Shown here piece by piece: positions 6,013 to 37,363 of a stretch of 49,169 nucleotides of DNA. How positions within the stretch are numbered: the stretch's first letter is position 1; each line of letters opens with the position of its first letter. Where the stretch lies: IMG/VR virus record IMGVR_UViG_2740892489_000001; one strand, given 5' to 3'. The notes under the pieces are model-generated. The model was given only the letters and a program-made list of their open reading frames with translations, ran no database searches and was not told the origin of the DNA. Both the position numbers and the translations under genes were made by a program. The DNA comes from a virus (lineage: Duplodnaviria; Heunggongvirae; Uroviricota; Caudoviricetes).

Positions 6013-6233
6013 TCACCATGACTCCGCCTTTACAGGTAAACCATCACGACCGAGGAAGACTTTAATCATGCGGTCAGTAATGCATGTTTTTGTGGTCAGG
6101 TTACGAATATATAGTTTTCGCTTTTTAATATTGTTTGCCGAGCAATATATGTCCGGCCTTCATGAAGAACATAATCGCCAGGAGTCACACACTGACGTGG
6201 TATTTCATCAGTTCCGAAGTGATGTGCAATCAT
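6013..6233 (-). CDS. kilR: KilR-like killing protein; frame appears broken near 6140
   Basis: [31 protein letters not shown] in one frame, ...[14 protein letters not shown] in the adjacent frame. Confidence 0.5.
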
Positions 6234-9001: not shown

Positions 9002-9790
9002 ATGGCTTCAAACTGGATAAAGCTCGAAGTTATTACGCCGGATAAGCCGGAAATATTCAGGCTTGCTGAGATTCTGAATATTGATCCAGATGCCGCATTA
9101 GGGAAAGTCATTCGCTTCTGGGCATGGGCGGATCAACAAATGATAGACGGTAACGCAGAGTGTAACGCTCGAGGCGTTACAAAAAGTGCAATAGACCGTA
9201 TCACTTTTATGGCTGGTTTTGCTGATGCGTTAATTCAGGTTGGATGGCTGGTCGAAAGTGATGGAGTGCTTTCACTACCAAACTTTGAGCGTCATAACGG
9301 AAAAAGCTCGAAAAAACGGGCGGTTACAAACGAGAGAGTTACAAAAATACGCGAACTGAAGCGAAAAGGTAACGCTGCCAGCGTTACACAAACGGATCAA
9401 AAAGCGTTACCAGAGGAAGAGGAAGAGGAAGATATAAATACTGATCTCCCCCTAAATCCCCCTCGGCAAAAACGAGCGTCTAAACAATTCGAGCCGGAGG
9501 CCATTGCTCTGCCCGACTGGTTGCCAGAAACACTCTGGAATGAGTGGGTCCAGTTCAGGCAGGCATTGCGAAAACCGATTCGAACGGAGCAGGGCGCTAA
9601 CGGGGCGATACGGGAACTGGAAAAATTCCGCCAGCAGGGTTTTACCCCTGAGCAGGTGATTCGACACAGCATCGCCAATGAATACCAGGGCTTGTTCGCG
9701 CCGAAAAGTGTTCGGCCTGAGACGTTGCTCCGACAGGTTAACACTGTCTCGTTTCCGGACAGTGCGATCCCGCCAGGCTTCAGGGGGTAA
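9002..9790 (+). CDS. Replication initiation protein, O-like
   Basis: 262 aa with acidic linker EEEEEED; iteron-like repeats inside the coding region; followed by DnaC-like gene. Confidence 0.7.
   Translation: MASNWIKLEVITPDKPEIFRLAEILNIDPDAALGKVIRFWAWADQQMIDGNAECNARGVTKSAIDRITFMAGFADALIQVGWLVESDGVLSLPNFERHNGKSSKKRAVTNERVTKIRELKRKGNAASVTQTDQKALPEEEEEEDINTDLPLNPPRQKRASKQFEPEAIALPDWLPETLWNEWVQFRQALRKPIRTEQGANGAIRELEKFRQQGFTPEQVIRHSIANEYQGLFAPKSVRPETLLRQVNTVSFPDSAIPPGFRG
9149..9410. repeat. Iteron-like GTAACGC / GCGTTAC repeats (candidate ori)
   Basis: GTAACGC at 9150 and 9162, GCGTTAC at 9174 and 9404, palindrome GTAACGCTGCCAGCGTTAC at 9369-9387; similar palindrome at 8970-8988. Confidence 0.6.
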
Positions 9791-23386: not shown

Positions 23387-24486
23387 ATGAGCAGACCGGA
23401 CTGGGGGGCGTTGCAGCAGGAGTATATTGCTGAATACACCCGCTCCGGTATATCTCCGGTGGCATGGTGTGAAGCAAGGGGACTGAACTACGCAACAGCC
23501 CGTCGTTACATCAAAAAAAACTCCGAAAAATGCGCAGAAAGAAAATGCGCAAAACTGCGCAAAAAAAGTGCGCGAAAAAAAAACTGCGCAGACTGCGCAA
23601 AGGCAGAACGGAAAATCTCAGAAAAAAAAAGGCTGTATCCGATGCACTCCTGATTGAGGGGGACACGGAAGAAATTTCGTTCTGCCCCGATGAATTCGGT
23701 ATTTCTGACCAGCAGGCAAAATTCGCCATGTTGGTTGCTCAGGGGAAAAAGCCGACAGAGGCATACCGACTGGCTGGTTATGAGGGGCAAGGTGCGACAG
23801 CTAACAGCAACGCCAGCCGTATGCTTAGAAATGCCAGGGTTTATCGTGCTATCAGCTACTTCCGCAATCAGTACCAGAAACGCTATACCGCAGACCTGGA
23901 TTTACTGGTGAGCCAGTTGATGGCCATTGTCCAGGCCGACCCCAATCAGTTGGCACAATTTCGCCGTGTTAACTGCCGTTATTGCTGGGGCGAGAATCAT
24001 CTCTACCAGTGGCGTGATATTGCAGAATTCGATAAGGCTGCGGCACAGGCCTCCAGAGATGGTAAACCCGAGCCGGAATATGGAGGCCTCGGCTTTGTTG
24101 ATAACGCCATACCCAATCCGGATTGCCCGAAGTGCTGCGGTGAGGGAACGGGACAGCTTTATATGGCTGATACCACACTGCTTGATGGGGATGCGCGGCA
24201 ATTATATGCAGGGTCAAAGCTCGGAAAATACGGTGTTGAGATCCTGCTGGAGGATAAGGCTGCCGCCCGGCGTGAATTGTTGCGTTTGCTTTCTGCTGGC
24301 GGGGCATTATGTGCAGATAAACGGCTACAGGAACTGGAAATTGAACGGCGCAGAATAGAAAACCAGAAGCTGCGCAAAGAGATCGAAACGGTGGAGGATA
24401 ATGAACATCCCCAGCCTGTGGCGATCAATATTAATGTGGTTGATGCCAGATTAAGGAGTGATGAAGATGATCTCTCCGACGCTTAA
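23387..24486 (+). CDS. Terminase small subunit; frame ambiguous through A-run repeat region 23513-23630
   Basis: N-terminal ORF 23387..23653 and ORF 23530..24486 (AKFAMLVAQGKKPTEAYRLAGY...ANSNASRMLRNARV) separated only by A8/A7/A9 runs. Confidence 0.6.
23513..23630. repeat. Array of six TGCGC(A/G) hexamers interleaved with A6-A9 tracts
   Basis: TGCGCA at 23531, 23546, 23556, 23585, 23594 and TGCGCG at 23569; A runs at 23513, 23561, 23575, 23622. Confidence 0.5.
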
Positions 24487-29143: not shown

Positions 29144-29241
29144 CACATTTGTCAGCTTCCGGATGGGAGCTGGTGTCAGGGCTGGATAGCTCATTACTCC
29201 ATCTATTCACAATTACGCAAATTTTTAAGGAATATTTAATT

Positions 29242-30381
29242 ATGGCTGGAAATACCCTGACCGGGTTGATCCCGACTATTTATACCGCCCTGGATATTGT
29301 ATCCCGTGAGCAGGTAGGTTTTATCCCTGCGGTAGCAAAAAACGCAAAAGCTGACGCCGCAGCAAAAGATCAGACGGTAACCGCGCCAGTTGCGCCTGAG
29401 GCGAAAACCGAAGATATCGTACCGGGGCCGTCAGCTCCGAATACCGGTGATCAAAATATTGGCACTGTTGATGTGAAAATTACTAAATCCAAAATGGCAC
29501 CGGTTAAATGGAATGGTGAAGAACAACTGGCTCTTGGCCCTTCAGGGACTTACAACACCATTCTGGCTGATCAGTTCAAGCAGGCTTTTCGCGCCCTTGC
29601 AAACGAGGTTGAGGCTGATCTTGGTGCGTTGTATTTCGGTGCTTCCCGCGCCGTGGGAACCGCAGGGACAACGCCGTTTGGTGTTAAAGATGATCTTTCT
29701 GATGCTGCTCTGGCTCGTCAGGTTCTGGAGGATAACGGCGCACCGACAACCGATCTGCAGATGGTGCTTGGCTCCACTGCCATTGCTAATTTGCGCGGAA
29801 AACAGTCTGTACTGTTTAAAGTGAATGAATCCGGCACTGAACAGCTACTGCGTGAGGGCGTGTTGGGGCGTCTGGAGGGATTCAATATTCACAGTTCGGC
29901 AGGTGTAAAACGAGCGCCAAAGGTTGCTGCAACTGGTTATCTCGTGAATGGCGAGAAAAAAGAAGGCGATGTTCTTATTTCCATTGATACTGGTTCGGGG
30001 AGTATTTCTGCAGGTCAGATTGTTACGTTCGCTGGCGATCCGAATCAGTATGTTGTGGCAGCAGCGACCAGCAATCTGATTACTCTTGCAGCGCCCGGAC
30101 TGCGTCAGGATCTGGCCGATGATACTGCAATCACAGTTGTTGGCTCCTTTACTGCAAATATGGCGTTTGATCGCAACGCGTTTCTGCTGGCATCCCGTAC
30201 TCCGGCAATGCCGGAAGGTGGCGATAATGCTGATGATGTAATGAATGTTACGGACCCGATTTCAGGGATTACGTTCCAGATTGCACTGTATCGTCAGTAT
30301 CGCCAGGTGCGCTATGAAGTTGGACTGGCATGGGGTGTTTCATCAGTGAAGCCGGCACATGGTTGTCTGATTCTTGGTTAA
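29242..30381 (+). CDS. Major capsid protein candidate
   Basis: 379 aa after scaffold, followed by a strong terminator; AAGGA Shine-Dalgarno before ATG 29242. Confidence 0.6.
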   Translation: MAGNTLTGLIPTIYTALDIVSREQVGFIPAVAKNAKADAAAKDQTVTAPVAPEAKTEDIVPGPSAPNTGDQNIGTVDVKITKSKMAPVKWNGEEQLALGPSGTYNTILADQFKQAFRALANEVEADLGALYFGASRAVGTAGTTPFGVKDDLSDAALARQVLEDNGAPTTDLQMVLGSTAIANLRGKQSVLFKVNESGTEQLLREGVLGRLEGFNIHSSAGVKRAPKVAATGYLVNGEKKEGDVLISIDTGSGSISAGQIVTFAGDPNQYVVAAATSNLITLAAPGLRQDLADDTAITVVGSFTANMAFDRNAFLLASRTPAMPEGGDNADDVMNVTDPISGITFQIALYRQYRQVRYEVGLAWGVSSVKPAHGCLILG

Positions 30382-30391
30382 ACATTCAAAC

Positions 30392-30411
30392 GGGGCTTCG
30401 GCCCCATTTTT
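30392..30411 (+). terminator. Rho-independent terminator after capsid gene
   Basis: GGGGC-TTCG-GCCCC followed by ATTTTT. Confidence 0.6.
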
Positions 30412-30423
30412 AATGGGGGGCAT

Positions 30424-30600
30424 ATGGCCGGATTAACTAAAGAGCAAAGAGCACAGCGTGAAGCCGCACAAAAAACGCAAATTGAGTTAGTGGTTATGGT
30501 GACCGATTATCAGATGTTTCCCGGCGCACCAACTATCGCTAATGTTCATCCTGATGAAGTTGACAACTGGAAGGCTATGGGCTGGAAAACTCAGGAGTAA
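30424..30600 (+). CDS. Small head-region protein (58 aa)
   Basis: Hand translation MAGLTKEQRAQREAAQKTQIELVV...; GGGGGG Shine-Dalgarno; below track cut-off. Confidence 0.35.
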   Translation: MAGLTKEQRAQREAAQKTQIELVVMVTDYQMFPGAPTIANVHPDEVDNWKAMGWKTQE

Positions 30601-30603
30601 CAC

Positions 30604-30999
30604 ATGATCACTTACGTGACCTGTGATGACGTTGATAATGCGTTTGGGAACGCCTGGACGAGTGAGAACGCTAAAAATAAAGCTGTTTTAATGGCTAATG
30701 CCTGGCTTAATGGCTTCAACCTGAAAATTAACCCATCCCGTATTCCGGAAGAGGTAAAACTTGCGGGAGCATATGCAGCCAGAATTGCCTCATTCGGTAA
30801 GTTGTTTCAGCAGAAAAATGATTCTGGCGTTGTTATCAGTAAAGCCGTGTCGGCTGACGGGGTCAGTGTATCGAAATCATTTTCTGAGTTGCCAGCAAAC
30901 AGCACTGCATTGCTTGAACCCGATTTACAGCTTGCGATAGCACTGCTGAAACCGTACGGACTTAGTCGCTCACAAGTCAGGGTTGTGAGGGGGGGATAA
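30604..30999 (+). CDS. Head-tail connector/adaptor protein candidate
   Basis: First of four tightly packed ~130-aa ORFs between capsid and major tail genes. Confidence 0.45.
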   Translation: MITYVTCDDVDNAFGNAWTSENAKNKAVLMANAWLNGFNLKINPSRIPEEVKLAGAYAARIASFGKLFQQKNDSGVVISKAVSADGVSVSKSFSELPANSTALLEPDLQLAIALLKPYGLSRSQVRVVRGG

Positions 31000-31382
31000 T
31001 GGGGCTTCGTGAAGAGATTCAGTCAGAGGTTGCCGCTGCTTTTGATGAGGATTTAGCGGACGCCGTGAGTGATTTTTCTGGTTCTTACGTTACGCACCGG
31101 CACTGGGATCCTGTGACGGAAACTGGCGGCGAATCCACCGAAATCTATACCGGGCGAGGCGTGTTGACACGTTATAAGCTGGGCAGAATTGATGGGATTA
31201 ATATTTTGCATGGTGACCTTAAATTAACCGCTCTGGTATGCGAGGTTACGGATAAACCAGCTGTCGACCATATTATTGAGATTTATGATCCTGTATCAAG
31301 GCAGTTACAACGATACGAGGTAATTACAGCAAGTGTAGATCCTTCCGCATCAGTTTACTCTATCCAGTTAAGGAGAGCGTAA
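30999..31382 (+). CDS. Head completion protein candidate
   Basis: Overlapping start/stop with neighbours; position. Confidence 0.4.
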   Translation: MGLREEIQSEVAAAFDEDLADAVSDFSGSYVTHRHWDPVTETGGESTEIYTGRGVLTRYKLGRIDGINILHGDLKLTALVCEVTDKPAVDHIIEIYDPVSRQLQRYEVITASVDPSASVYSIQLRRA

Positions 31383-31763
31383 ATGGCAAAGGCATGGGAT
31401 ATAGAACCGTCAATATTTGCCGGGATGATTGAGGAAGATGTAGGGCTGAAGATTCGCTACATCGCTATTCAGATTCTTACTGCTATTGATATTGCTGCTC
31501 CGGTTGATACCGGACGTTTCAGAAATAACAACCTGGTGTCGTTACAGCATCCCGATTTTGGTATATCTGATAACGTGGATCCGAACGGTACGATTGCTGT
31601 TCAGCGTGGGATCGGGGTTATTTCGAAAGCTGCAAATTACGGAGTTATTTATATCCAGAATAACCTTCCTTATGCAGAGGCTCTTGAAAACGGTCATTCA
31701 CAACAAGCGCCAACTGGCGTGTATGCCAACGCTTTTCATGGTGTTTTACAGGCTTACAAATGA
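31383..31763 (+). CDS. Tail completion/neck protein candidate
   Basis: Position in head-tail joining block. Confidence 0.4.
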   Translation: MAKAWDIEPSIFAGMIEEDVGLKIRYIAIQILTAIDIAAPVDTGRFRNNNLVSLQHPDFGISDNVDPNGTIAVQRGIGVISKAANYGVIYIQNNLPYAEALENGHSQQAPTGVYANAFHGVLQAYK

Positions 31764-32152
31764 CGTTTACTGAAATCAGAAATACGGTTATTTCCAGAAT
31801 GACGGCACAGACGATTATTGATGGAAAAGACGTATTGTATCCGAACGCGCCAACGTTCGATCCTTCCGGTAAGTTAATCTGGGCGCGGTTAAGTAATATT
31901 CCCGGGCAGGCTGGAGTTAATGAAATTGGCGCGGGGCCGATTGTTTATCGCACGGGGATAATCATTATTCAGTTATTTGTCCCCGCAGGTTCTGGTTCAA
32001 AACTCATTACTGAGACAGCCGATAAATTGCGGGAACTGTTTGAGTTTCAGGATGACGATCGTCTCAGTTACCAGGCTGTTTCCTCAATAGCCGTTGGCGA
32101 AAAGAATGGCTGGTTCCAGCTTAATCTTCAAATTCCATATCGCGCGCTCTAG
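31760..32152 (+). CDS. Tail terminator-like protein candidate
   Basis: Position directly upstream of the major tail gene. Confidence 0.4.
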   Translation: MTFTEIRNTVISRMTAQTIIDGKDVLYPNAPTFDPSGKLIWARLSNIPGQAGVNEIGAGPIVYRTGIIIIQLFVPAGSGSKLITETADKLRELFEFQDDDRLSYQAVSSIAVGEKNGWFQLNLQIPYRAL

Positions 32153-32178
32153 CGCAATTAATGACATAGGAGGCTCCT

Positions 32179-33144
32179 GTGAGTTCAGGTGCAAAGGTTA
32201 TCTCGGCATTTATCCGGGAGACGGTTGCAGGCACTACGCCAGCAAGTGGTGACTGGAGTTTATTAAAACGCACAAGCTGGGGAGTAAAACCCACCCAGAA
32301 TAAAGGCGAAAATAATGAGATTGGTGGCTCCCGGATGGCTCAGGGGGCGACGCCTGGCACTGTGGATGTCGGCGGTGATGTTGGTACCAAATTTCGCTGG
32401 GGTCAACATGATGATTTTCTTGCATCCTGTTTCGGCGCGGAATGGTCAGGCGATTCTCTGACAATGGGGAATGAGCGAATAACATTTTCTCTGGCGACCT
32501 ATGCGTCCGATGTCGGAATTGCCTCTGTCGTCAGAGGAGCGCAGGTTGGCTCATGGAAAATGCAGATCCCTAACGACGGCGATATTACAGCGACCGTAAC
32601 CTTTGCCGGACTGGACTGGGAATCAAAGGCCGATGATACGAATTTTATCAAAGGCGAACCTGTGGATAGTGCAGGAAAGCTACGTTATTCGTTTAAGGAG
32701 GTTTCAGCAGTAAGCCTGAATGGTGTTGCCGGAGGTAACGGTTTTTGTATCGACAGTTTTGATATTCAGTTCGATAACAAACTCCAGACACAGCGTTGTA
32801 TCGGGACTGGCTCGCCTTATGCAGGAGCAAATATTCCGACTACTTTTACACCGTCCGGTACGGTGACGCTTTCATGGTCTAAAGCCGCGTGGGAAATCTG
32901 GAGTAAAACACTGACTGGAGAAACAGTTCCGTTCAGCTTCACGCTTTCGAATGGAGAGGGGGCATACACTTTCAGTTTCCCGAAGGTTCAGGTGTCAGGT
33001 GAATGGCCTGATGGGGGTAATAGCGACATTATCCAGGTTCAATTGAGCATTACCGCAGCAGATGAAGCACCTACGATAACCAGAAAAAAAAAAAATTCCC
33101 CGGCTGCCGTGATCGCAAAAGCCAGTGCTGAGGCGATTAGTTGA
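32179..33144 (+). CDS. Major tail (tube) protein candidate; C-terminus passes an A12 run
   Basis: 321 aa directly upstream of the G/G-T chaperone pair and tape measure; A12 at 33084-33095 makes the true C-terminus uncertain. Confidence 0.55.
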   Translation: MSSGAKVISAFIRETVAGTTPASGDWSLLKRTSWGVKPTQNKGENNEIGGSRMAQGATPGTVDVGGDVGTKFRWGQHDDFLASCFGAEWSGDSLTMGNERITFSLATYASDVGIASVVRGAQVGSWKMQIPNDGDITATVTFAGLDWESKADDTNFIKGEPVDSAGKLRYSFKEVSAVSLNGVAGGNGFCIDSFDIQFDNKLQTQRCIGTGSPYAGANIPTTFTPSGTVTLSWSKAAWEIWSKTLTGETVPFSFTLSNGEGAYTFSFPKVQVSGEWPDGGNSDIIQVQLSITAADEAPTITRKKKNSPAAVIAKASAEAIS

Positions 33145-33192
33145 TTTTCCGTTATTCCTCCTGTGGTACTGCCCTACAGGGGGACGCATTGA

Positions 33193-33654
33193 ATGAGGTT
33201 ATGGATGTTTATTCTTAATCAGAAAATTATCATTGGTGGAGAACGCTGGTTTACGCCAATGAAGGACTTAAAACCTGTAGACGGGTTAAAACTGTTGGTG
33301 GCAAGCAGCGATAACGATCAGTATCGCTCCCGTAATGCATTAATCCGTCGCCACATTGAGAAAATGGATGCCAGTTTGCACGTCGGAACGAAGGAGTTTG
33401 ATATTTCAAAGGTTTCCGAGGTGGATTCTGTTGATGATTTACTCATTGATAATGCCGCTCGTTATCTGCTGAAAGACTGGAAAGGGGTTGGTGAACTGGT
33501 TAATGGTGTTGAGGTTGCACTGGAATATACGGCAGAACGAGGGATCGCGCTGCTTAAGCAGAATCCAGAGTTGTACTGGCAGATCCTTGCAGAAGCAGCC
33601 AGCATCGCCCAGGGTAAAGAGCAGCAGAAGCAGGATACGATAAAAAAGCCATAG
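33193..33654 (+). CDS. Tail assembly chaperone G
   Basis: Ends with slippery A-AAA-AAG and stop; upstream of tape measure. Confidence 0.6.
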   Translation: MRLWMFILNQKIIIGGERWFTPMKDLKPVDGLKLLVASSDNDQYRSRNALIRRHIEKMDASLHVGTKEFDISKVSEVDSVDDLLIDNAARYLLKDWKGVGELVNGVEVALEYTAERGIALLKQNPELYWQILAEAASIAQGKEQQKQDTIKKP

Positions 33655-33962
33655 CTGCCCAGCGGTGGTTATCGGAGTTCGGGGGAGAAAGGGGGGAAAA
33701 GGCAAGATGGAAGCGAGAAAAACTCAGGTTGCCACCGATACCGGAACCAGAAATAGACCCGGTGCTTAAGGAGTTGTTGTACGCCTATTCGGTAATATCC
33801 CGTGCCCGACGTTATGCTGGAATGGCTGGGGTGCCTTTGCCTTTATCTCTGACAGAGATAAATGAATATTTAGCCACTCATCCGGTATTGATTGAGCGCG
33901 ATGAATTTGAAGCAGTGATCTTTGCACTGGATGACCAGTATTTTCAGGAGCAGTGTGTGTAG
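33193..33962 (+). CDS. Tail assembly chaperone G-T fusion via programmed -1 frameshift
   Basis: -1 frame after heptamer 33642-33648 is open to 33962 and matches track ORF 33729..33962. Confidence 0.55.
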
Positions 33963-34127
33963 TTGTTAATTACGTACACTCTGTTACAGAGATGTGATGG
34001 TGTCTTTAATTAAATCGATGATGCTCCTGGAGAAAAGCATCGCGTGGCCTCGTAATCGCTATATCTACTATTATGTCGCCTGAAACCCACTTCGCGGTGG
34101 GTTTTTTGTTGTCAGGAGTTTTAATAA

Positions 34128-37100
34128 ATGGCAGAGCAAACCTCGCGTCTCGCAATAATTATTGATAGCACTGGAGCGAAAAATAATGCTGACAATCTGA
34201 CCTCCTCATTAGTCAAAATGACGCAGGCTGGGGAAACTGCTGCAAATAGCGCAGGGAAAGTGACTAAGGCAACAGAAGATGAGAAGAACGCGCTCGCAAA
34301 ATTAAAAGCAGCTATTGATCCAGTTGGTGCCGCAATTGATACTGTCGGTCGACGCTATTCTGAATTAAAGAAATTTTTCGATAAAGGGCTTATTGATAAA
34401 GAAGAATATGAATTTCTTGTCCGTAAACTTAATGAAACCACAGAGGAATTGAGCGGGGTTGCGCAAGCGCAGAGAGAAGCCGAGAAGGCCGGAAAACTTG
34501 CTGCCGCCCAGCAGGAAGCGCAGGCTCAGGCCTTTCAAAGAATGCTGGACAAGATCGACCCTCTGGCTGCGGCGCTAAGAAATCTTGAACAACAGCATGA
34601 TGAACTTAATGCTGCGTTTGCATCCGGGAAAATAAATGGTTCTCAGTTTGAGAATTATAGCCGAAAAATACAGGAAACACGGCGAGAGCTTACCGGAGAG
34701 GCTCAGGCAGAGCGAGAAGCAGCAAAAGCGCATGATGAACAGGTTGTTGCTTTGCAACGTCTGATTGCTCAACTTGATCCTGTCGGAACTGCTTTTAATC
34801 GTCTGGTAGAACAACAGAAACAGCTCAATGAAGCAAAAGCTAAGGGGATGCTTTCTCCTGAAATGTATGAGGAGCTTTCTGGAAAACTTCGTGCTATGCG
34901 GAGTGAGCTTGAGGTTACTCAATCACAATTAAGCAAAACCGGAATGTCGGCAAAACAAACGGCTTTTGCTATGCGCATGTTGCCTGCACAAATGACGGAT
35001 ATTGTTGTTGGGTTGTCCACTGGTCAGTCGCCATTTATGGTGTTAATGCAGCAGGGCGGCCAGCTAAAAGATATGTTCGGTGGGATTGGCCCGGCGATCA
35101 AAGGTGTAGGTTCTTATGTGCTGGGATTAATTAATCCTTTTACCCTGGCCGCAGCAGCCGTTGGGGTCTTAGGACTGGCTTACTATAAAGGCTCTCAGGA
35201 GCAGGACGAATTTAATAAATCTCTTATTCTTACCGGAAATCAGTTGGGGACAACCAGCGGGCAATTGGGCGATATAGCTCAACGTGCCGGGAATGCGGCT
35301 GATTCGACAACTGGTGCTGCGGCGGCAGTATTAAATCAGCTTGTGCGTTCGGGAAAGGTAGCGAGCAGTTCGCTGGAGCAAGTGACGACAGCGATAGTAA
35401 AAACGAGCGAAGTAACAGGAATATCAACCGAACAACTGGTTAATGACTTCAATGAAATTGCAAAGGATCCTGTCAGTGCCATATCAAAACTTAATGATCA
35501 GTACCATTTTCTGACACTTGCGACTTATAACCAGATTAAGGCGCTACAGGATGAAGGGAACCAGCAGGAGGCCGCCCGCATTGCGACAGAAGAATACTCA
35601 TCCTCAATGATCCAGCGCACCAACCAGATTAAAGAAAATCTTGGTTATCTTGAGACTGCATGGAAAGCTGTCGCAGACTCCGCAAAATGGGCATGGGATT
35701 CCATGCTGGATATTGGCCGTGAGGCCTCCCTTGATCAAAAAATCTCAGATGTTCTCCGTCAAATTGATGAAATAGAAAAAAATACCCGACCCGGAGTTTT
35801 CGGGTTAGGTGGCATTGGAGATGGCGGAGCTCAAAATAAAAGGCTGGCACGATTAAAGCAGCAATTGGGCGTACTTCAAGCAGAAAAAATTGCTCAGGAC
35901 GTACTAAATTCATCAATAAACGATTACAACAAGCGACAACAGGAAGGAATTGAACTCAGACAGAGAGCAGATGCCTTTTCAAAACAATATCAGACCCGGG
36001 AGCAGCAGAGAGCTAGTGAACTTGCAAAACTGGAAAAGCTAAAGAATCAGTATTCAAAGGAAGAATATAATAATCTTATCGCTCAAATAAATGAGCGTTA
36101 TAAAGATCCAAAGCAACCAAAGGCGAAAGGTTATTCTGATGATGCAGCCCAACGAATGATTGATCATCTGAATCAACAGAATGCGTTACTAAGTTCACAA
36201 GCTGAGTTGACCGTTAAATTAAGTTCCTCTGAACAGGAACTGGTTAAGTGGCGTCAGCGGATTGCCGACCTAGAGTCACGACCATCATCGAAATTAACCC
36301 AGGATCAGAAATCGCTTCTCTTACACCGGGAAGAAATAACCGCGTTGATGGAGAAAAATGTTGCGATTGAAAAGAATAACAGGCTAATCAAGGAATCCGC
36401 CGAAATAACAGCATGGCGTGATTCATTGCAGGCTTCGATTGATAATCGTCAGCAGGGGTATGATATTCAGATTGCTGGTTATGGGGTTGGCGATAAAAAT
36501 CAGCAACGCCAGCAGGAATTACTGCGGATTGAACATGGATATAACAATCAGCGTCTGCAACTTGAACGTGACTATGCAGATAAATCCCGTGGAATGTCAG
36601 ATCATGTTTTTCAAGAGAAAATGCAGGCTCTGAATGATGCTCTGGAACGGGAAAAAGAAATTGTCAGACAGAAAAACGAGCAGCTCGATATTCAGGCAGG
36701 AGACTGGGTTAGTGGTGCCTCCCAGGGATTCAATAACTGGCTGGATGACACTAAGGATATCAGTGAGCAGATAAAATCAACCACGACTCAGATGTTTGAT
36801 GGGATGACCGATGCGCTGGGTGATTTTGTCACGACAGGCAAGGCAAATTTTCGTTCTTTCGCTACTTCCGTGATTTCGGATCTTAGTCGAATGGCATTAA
36901 AGGCTTCAATTACTGGGATTTTCGACAGCATTAGTAACAGTTCTTCTGGGGGGATTTTAGGAACTATCGGGAGTGCTATTAGTAAATTTATTCCGAATGC
37001 AAAGGGCGGTATTTATGAGTCTCCGTCATTGAGCACGTATTCGAACGGTATTTATGATTCCCCGCAATTTTTTTGCTTTTTGCAAAAGGGGCTGGTGTTT

Positions 37101-37363
37101 TTGGTGAGGCTGGACCGGAAGCCATTATGCCATTAACACGAACTTCCGATGGTTCTCTTGGTGTCAGAGCTATTAATAGTAAAAGTGGTAATGGAGGCGG
37201 AGATATTACCTATGCCCCTGTATACCAAATCACTATTCAAAATGACGGCCAGAATGGAGAGATTGGCCCTCAGGCAATAAAAGCACTTATGGGGATGGTT
37301 GATCAGCGGGTGCAGGGCAATCTGTTAAATATGCGACGTGATGGGGGAATATTAAGTGGCTAA
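34128..37363 (+). CDS. Tail tape measure protein; frame broken at T7 run 37068-37074
   Basis: 1002-aa coiled-coil-rich ORF; C-terminal ORF 37073..37363 ([21 protein letters not shown]…) joins if the run is one base longer. Confidence 0.85.

Follow-up and report, generated by a model that had tools for sequence, protein, structure and literature searches.

Major tail proteins of siphophages reportedly carry Ig-like domains at their C-termini, some of which are reached by programmed frameshift, as Fraser and colleagues are said to have described in 2006. A further recoding event known from phage tail operons is the −1 frameshift of the lambda-type G/GT pair. On the level of transcription, slippage at A9/T9 tracts has been described for the A9 of dnaX in Thermus thermophilus, for mxiE in Shigella and for the transposases of IS elements (Baranov et al., 2005, PMC1088944). 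Long runs are, furthermore, a source of sequencing error: the accuracy of the Ion Torrent PGM falls with homopolymer length, being only about 68% at a length of six, errors tend to occur in the A and T flows, and long homopolymers are mostly under-called in the raw reads (PMC3623719).

Here, we analysed a run of twelve A (A12) in the major tail protein gene of a stretch of phage DNA of 49,169 nt, in the following referred to as the window. With regard to the Ig-domain major tail proteins, the run is located exactly at the junction where relatives of about 390 aa enter a Big_2 domain, but wherever the Ig domain is present in this tube family, it is fused in frame. A site of the same kind as in the lambda-type G/GT pair is found in the same operon, 550 nt downstream of the A12; however, it belongs to another gene, is unrelated to the run and opens an extended homologous −1 ORF. 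With the described A9/T9 slippage sites, the locus would share a true tract of nine sense-strand A close to the 3′ end of the coding sequence, which is a slippage-prone length (PMC1088944), but an extended or conserved alternative ORF is missing here, and neither the other alleles nor the relatives preserve the tract. Finally, the window has in common with errors of the Ion Torrent/454 type that indels are confined to homopolymers, depend steeply on run length, affect A/T flows and create scattered artificial frameshifts, and it differs from them by net over-calls, as opposed to the under-calls of raw reads, and by a change of +3 instead of +1 at this particular site.

Results

A run of twelve A close to the end of a tail tube gene

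Exactly twelve A are read directly in the plus strand of the window (Table 1). They represent its longest homopolymer, followed by four runs of nine, and an A12 would not be expected by chance, with an expectation of 0.07 per dinucleotide-preserving shuffle and presence in 4 of 100 shuffles. The run is read as AGA AAA AAA AAA AAT, i.e., R302 K K K N306, followed by SPAAVIAKASAEAIS and the stop codon, which places the encoded R-K-K-K-N 17 codons ahead of the stop of the tube gene. The initial annotation had reported an A12 inside the major tail protein gene, encoding KKKN near the C-terminus; sequence, ORF and Pfam match agree with the former statement, and the translation of the ORF with the latter.

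Table 1. Coordinates of the tail tube gene, the run and further over-called sites in the window.
Feature	Position	Strand	Basis and remarks
A12 homopolymer	33084..33095	+	Probable true length A9, i.e., 3 of 12 A over-called
Tail tube (major tail) protein gene, Rac-like prophage	32179..33144	+	ORF list, Pfam, RefSeq
Phage_tube_2 domain	32188..33057	+	hmmscan, residues 4–293; A-run outside the domain
Short variable C-terminal tail	33082..33144	+	R KKK NSPAAVIAKASAEAIS stop, from the conserved ...PTITR junction
Small terminase over-call cluster	23513..23630	+	Five +1 A-run insertions in 118 nt; alignments
Tape measure T-run over-calls	37074..37082	+	T6 written T7, T4 written T5 (37074, 37077)

The tube ORF starts with GTG and comprises 321 aa as written, or 320 aa in the probable true form. 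It matches the Pfam family Phage_tube_2 (PF18906) with an E-value of 1.3e-31 and 110.7 bits (cut-off 27), the match covering profile positions 1–266 of 266 and residues 4–293 of 321 (hmmscan envelope). In RefSeq, the homologues with 99.7% identity (963 nt) are named “phage tail tube protein.” As judged from the ORFs and the annotation of homologues, the gene stands in a siphovirus tail module, with a terminator-like gene upstream and the YdaY chaperone and the tape measure genes downstream; both the profile match and this position place it in the phage tail tube family. No terminator- or promoter-like site was found in the region 32900–33400.

The YdaY-family ORF of the same module (33193..33654) ends with an in-frame A_AAA_AAG heptamer (33642–33648), and its −1 frame continues to 33962 with a weak match to Phage_TAC_18 (E-value 4.7e-4, below the gathering score). 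Going by this layout, the region 33193–33962 resembles the G/GT pair of tail assembly chaperones known from lambda. In RefSeq, the two chaperone parts appear as separate genes (ydaY and a hypothetical protein), with no frameshift product.

The window stems from an Ion Torrent draft genome

The window represents a Rac-like prophage of Escherichia coli, whose gene order was taken from the annotation of near-identical stretches in complete genomes. It begins with intR, xisR, ralR, recT, recE, racC, kilR, sieB, ydaT/V, lysis genes and trkG, continues with the genes for terminase, portal, P22-type capsid, tail terminator, tube, YdaY chaperone and tape measure, and ends with tail tip genes, the tail fibre gene and pinR. 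The exact 321-aa protein with KKKN was found in one assembly only (GCA_001630965.1, contig LAXB01000011.1), and 6966 nt of this contig are identical to positions 29179–36144 of the window.

The record LAXB00000000 holds the draft of the E. coli RCE08 genome, which was obtained in a study on Crohn’s disease by assembly of Ion Torrent PGM reads with MIRA 4.0 (PMC5517970). The authors of this draft described homopolymer errors leading to artificial frameshifts and reported residual indels; by their own estimate, a home-made homopolymer corrector reduced artificial indels only about 2.5-fold (PMC5517970). The window is, hence, part of an Ion Torrent PGM draft and comes from a flow-based platform, as expected for a homopolymer artefact.

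Discrepancies rise with the length of A/T runs

For an alignment across the window, the complete genomes NZ_CP018957, NZ_AP022536 and NZ_CP075062, which contain the same prophage, served as reference set. The near-identical part compared consisted of the first 37.9 kb, and substitutions were counted over the first 35 kb. Only 12 substitutions (about 0.03%) were observed. The first 37.9 kb contain 32 indels, of which 31 fall into A/T runs, comprising 29 insertions in the window vs. 2 deletions, and all insertions are of +1 (n = 28) except for the A12 site with +3. Discrepant A/T runs were rare among short runs, with 1 of 977 3-mers (0.1%), 1 of 370 4-mers and 2 of 131 5-mers, and made up 13 of 69 6-mers (19%), 9 of 16 7-mers (56%) and 4 of 7 8-mers (57%); the only 9-mer, which corresponds to the A12 site with its +3, is discrepant as well. 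For G/C runs of three or more, the count was zero out of 656. The discrepancies are, thus, confined to homopolymers and become more frequent with run length, which is the pattern expected for an artefact.

Indels were found in 18 of the 48 genes, and 15 genes are frame-broken in the window yet intact in the references, including those for the integrase, RecE, TrkG, the small terminase, the portal, the tape measure and tail protein M. The densest artefact cluster, and the worst-affected part of the window, is a lysine-rich stretch of the small terminase (Table 1), in which A7 is written as A8, A3 as A4, A6 as A7 and A8 twice as A9, resulting in a net change of +5. The tape measure ORF (34128..37136) has 1002 aa in the window vs. 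3234 nt (1077 aa) in the three complete genomes. It ends early, at position 37136, because two T runs are over-called (Table 1), and its out-of-frame tail is an artefact.

Two sites of another kind were seen in the same alignment. At position 6142 in kilR, the lone indel outside A/T runs, two complete genomes have GG vs. a single G in the window, and this G is probably a flow under-call too. In the gene between ydaT and ydaV (9002–9790), the window has A6 at position 9311 and an intact ORF of 262 codons; two complete genomes have A7 at this place, and their copy is marked “frameshifted” by PGAP. Either this run is a real frameshift or slippage site in the finished genomes, or an under-call or a BLAST-based correction happened to restore the frame in the draft.

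Finished genomes carry A9, and less often A8 or A10

The locus is carried by 716 of 5426 complete E. coli genomes. When these 716 loci were ranked by similarity to a 201-nt stretch of the window around the run, the matching span across the run was 199 nt for the best three (A10) and at most 198 nt for all others, as compared to 201 nt in the window, and neither A11 nor A12 was found in any of the 716 complete E. coli genomes with the locus. The exact flank (95-mer) occurs with A9 in 361 complete E. coli genomes, with A8 in 36, including ETEC H10407, and with A10 in 2 complete genomes, plus one more with a substitution. Furthermore, A9 stands at the aligned position in three complete genomes and two phage records, and a search of a phage collection gave only A9 relatives (Salmonella phage SPF_0923 and nine prophage-derived vB_EcoS records). 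On the protein level, the 320-aa form with KKN is present on at least 1000 contigs, as compared to a single one for the form with KKKN.

Copies with A8 and A10 are labeled “frameshifted” by PGAP. Among six A8 loci examined (e.g., NC_017633.1, 891928–892889), the flanks represent three or more haplotypes, a spread which could reflect a recurrent origin, although recombination may give the same pattern from a single one. A second E. coli allele, AGAAAAAAATGC (A7 + TGC, encoding RKKC), is found in about 200 genomes, with A6 in one copy, and distant homologues at 70–80% identity (Klebsiella and others) use the Arg codon CGC and have no A-run. Judging from these genome sequences, the real tract shows a natural length polymorphism at a low level.

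The run marks a modular junction at the C-terminus

All homologues share the stretch ...ITAAD(E/V)(A/S)PTITR and diverge directly after TITR. Most relatives at 70–80% identity continue behind this junction with an in-frame Big_2 Ig-like domain (PF02368) and reach about 390 aa; these Big_2-bearing relatives come from Klebsiella, Raoultella, Citrobacter, Enterobacter and Salmonella. Short homologues of 306–320 aa have unrelated tails, e.g., TPAGS, AVTVAEL, VPATSGGGD or KAAASADDASDPA. The A-run, thus, encodes the beginning of a short tail which is specific to the lineage and is attached at a modular junction.

Translation of the three tract lengths gives a product of 309 aa ending in ...KKIPRLP for A8, of 320 aa ending in ...KKNSPAAVIAKASAEAIS for A9 and of 316 aa ending in ...KKKFPGCRDRKSQC for A10. 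The alternative frame reached by one additional A stops after 12 codons and the one reached by loss of an A after 5, with no domain in either, and a longer ORF opened by any frame at the run was not found. In view of the A8 allele in 36 complete genomes, the 17-residue tail seems to be dispensable, or else the A8 prophages are defective.

An Ig-like domain hidden behind a frameshift at the run was considered and rejected, since the frames stop within 12 codons and the gene of the YdaY-family chaperone already starts 49 nt past the tube stop. The arrangement is similar in short-form homologues (Klebsiella, another host), where the chaperone follows 38–61 nt downstream and where no hidden downstream Ig ORF was found.

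The Rac-type tail SPAAVIAKAS shows a faint likeness to VPATGISVAP, the initial strand of the Ig module; going by this resemblance, the tail might be a deletion remnant of such a module. In addition, two database proteins of 421 and 472 aa share about 99% identity with the tube protein up to residue ~295–300 and are unrelated thereafter, one of them ending like a tail assembly protein and the other one continuing with a gpJ-like segment. They are probably deletion fusions in degraded prophages.

Discussion

We are highly confident that the A12 is an artefact of sequencing or assembly, in which a real A9 was over-called by three in an Ion Torrent PGM/MIRA draft. The window originates from such a draft, its A/T runs deviate from the finished genomes in a length-dependent manner, and the A12 is unique among homologues; from this, we infer that the +3 at the tube gene is an error and not a private mutation. 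Frameshifts confined to A/T runs are the signature of flow-based homopolymer miscalling, and 15 frameshifts are implausible as real mutation, because the prophage differs by only about 0.03% substitutions. In the real prophage, the sequence would read AGA AAA AAA AAT, giving RKKN in a tube protein of 320 aa, and in the same draft, numerous further long A/T runs are one base too long.

The initial annotation had offered a miscalled run length as one of two options, and this option is supported by the Ion Torrent draft, the systematic A/T over-calls and the A9 in homologues. Its refuting case, homologues with the same run and a single C-terminal form, does not apply as worded, the homologues carrying A9, A8, A10, A7 or none. 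The observation of an A12 was, thus, correct as text, but the written sequence itself is almost certainly wrong, i.e., an assembly error. As biology, the A12 is no real feature and the finding is an ordinary one.

Some observations run against a miscalled A9. The consensus over-calls (29 insertions vs. 2 deletions), which is opposite to the tendency of raw PGM reads; this direction may be due to the version of the base-caller, to consensus building in MIRA or to the correction step of the authors. Moreover, the +3 preserves the reading frame and exceeds the +1 of all other sites, and a tolerated real expansion would look alike. A8 and A10 alleles do exist in finished genomes, and a private A12 allele is, consequently, not impossible.

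The latter points lead to the alternative that the A12 is real, namely a private in-frame expansion from A9 to A12 by replication slippage in RCE08, which would add one lysine to a dispensable tail. We assign only a slim chance to this event. It would fit a tract which varies in finished genomes, with A8 in 36 genomes on at least three haplotypes and A10 in two to three, and a change which keeps the frame and is unlike the +1 errors elsewhere in size. However, A11 or A12 is absent from all 716 complete genomes with the locus and the KKKN protein is restricted to a single contig, while most A/T runs of 7–8 have a wrong length in the same Ion Torrent draft, such that the prior for an error at a 9-mer of the RCE08 assembly exceeds one half. 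In addition, no non-homopolymer indel in the first 37.9 kb supports a real indel divergence from the closest relatives. A mismatch-repair-deficient host as source of the indels was likewise rejected by inference, because 15 frame-broken genes stand against 12 substitutions in 35 kb and the platform cause is documented; such a defect would scale to thousands of frameshifts genome-wide.

Further alternatives accept the A9 as true and ascribe a function to it. In its broadest form, the A9 would be a selected hypermutable, slippage-prone switch, which diversifies an exposed tube tail into forms of 320, 316 and 309 aa via DNA length variation and slippage of the RNA polymerase; this we regard as improbable. 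Also very improbable is a programmed transcriptional-slippage site, at which the polymerase would add or drop an A and thereby supply tube subunits with two to three different C-termini. Slippage indeed becomes efficient at nine A/T, a length against which many bacterial genomes show selection (PMC1088944), so that the tract is long enough to be slippage-prone; the A9 is exactly conserved in 361 genomes, and short defined tails, 5 and 12 residues long, result from the alternative frames. These frames contain no domain, however, and stop within 12 codons, i.e., a functional product is not apparent. The tract is not conserved either, as about 200 E. coli genomes carry the A7 allele and relatives use CGC without any run, and overall identity among the 361 A9 copies amounts to about 99%, for which reason identity of the run says little about selection.

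Alternative C-termini by slippage, the other option of the initial annotation, hold in a weak sense, in that A8 and A10 alleles give forms of 309 and 316 aa. The stronger sense, a programmed or selected recoding, found no counterpart at the tract: there is neither a longer ORF nor a downstream structure, the tract is unconserved, and a search for evidence of programmed recoding at this place was negative. The true A9, located in a short tail past the tube domain, is only mildly prone to slippage. Slips at the A9, be it in DNA or RNA, would only replace the final 17 residues by a different stretch of 5 or 12, and by analogy with the described A9/T9 tracts, unprogrammed slippage leading to some heterogeneous mRNA is likely.

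Least credible of all is a −1 ribosomal frameshift site at the run (A_AAA_AAA in frame, with the product ...KKKFPGCRDRKSQC), as, although the A AAA AAA stands in the X_XXY_YYZ register of the tube frame and the same prophage has an A_AAA_AAG in the G/GT chaperone pair 550 nt downstream, no stimulatory RNA structure beyond shuffled controls was found in the 70 nt downstream of the run (z = −0.06) and no Shine-Dalgarno-like element upstream, the product amounts to only 12 residues with no homology, giving neither a stimulator nor a meaningful ORF, and the heptamer is missing from distant homologues.

The main value of these results is a caution, since over half of the A/T runs of seven or more in the window have a wrong length. 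Findings from this window which concern homopolymer length, frameshifts, truncations or “pseudogenes” should, consequently, be checked against finished relatives, e.g., for the tape measure, the small terminase, the portal, the integrase, recE and trkG. Concerning the biology of the prophage, the length polymorphism of the A9 is a small curiosity and no new mechanism, and the tail tube gene, in its true form, is an ordinary one of the Rac-like type, with its A9 in a short, probably dispensable tail.
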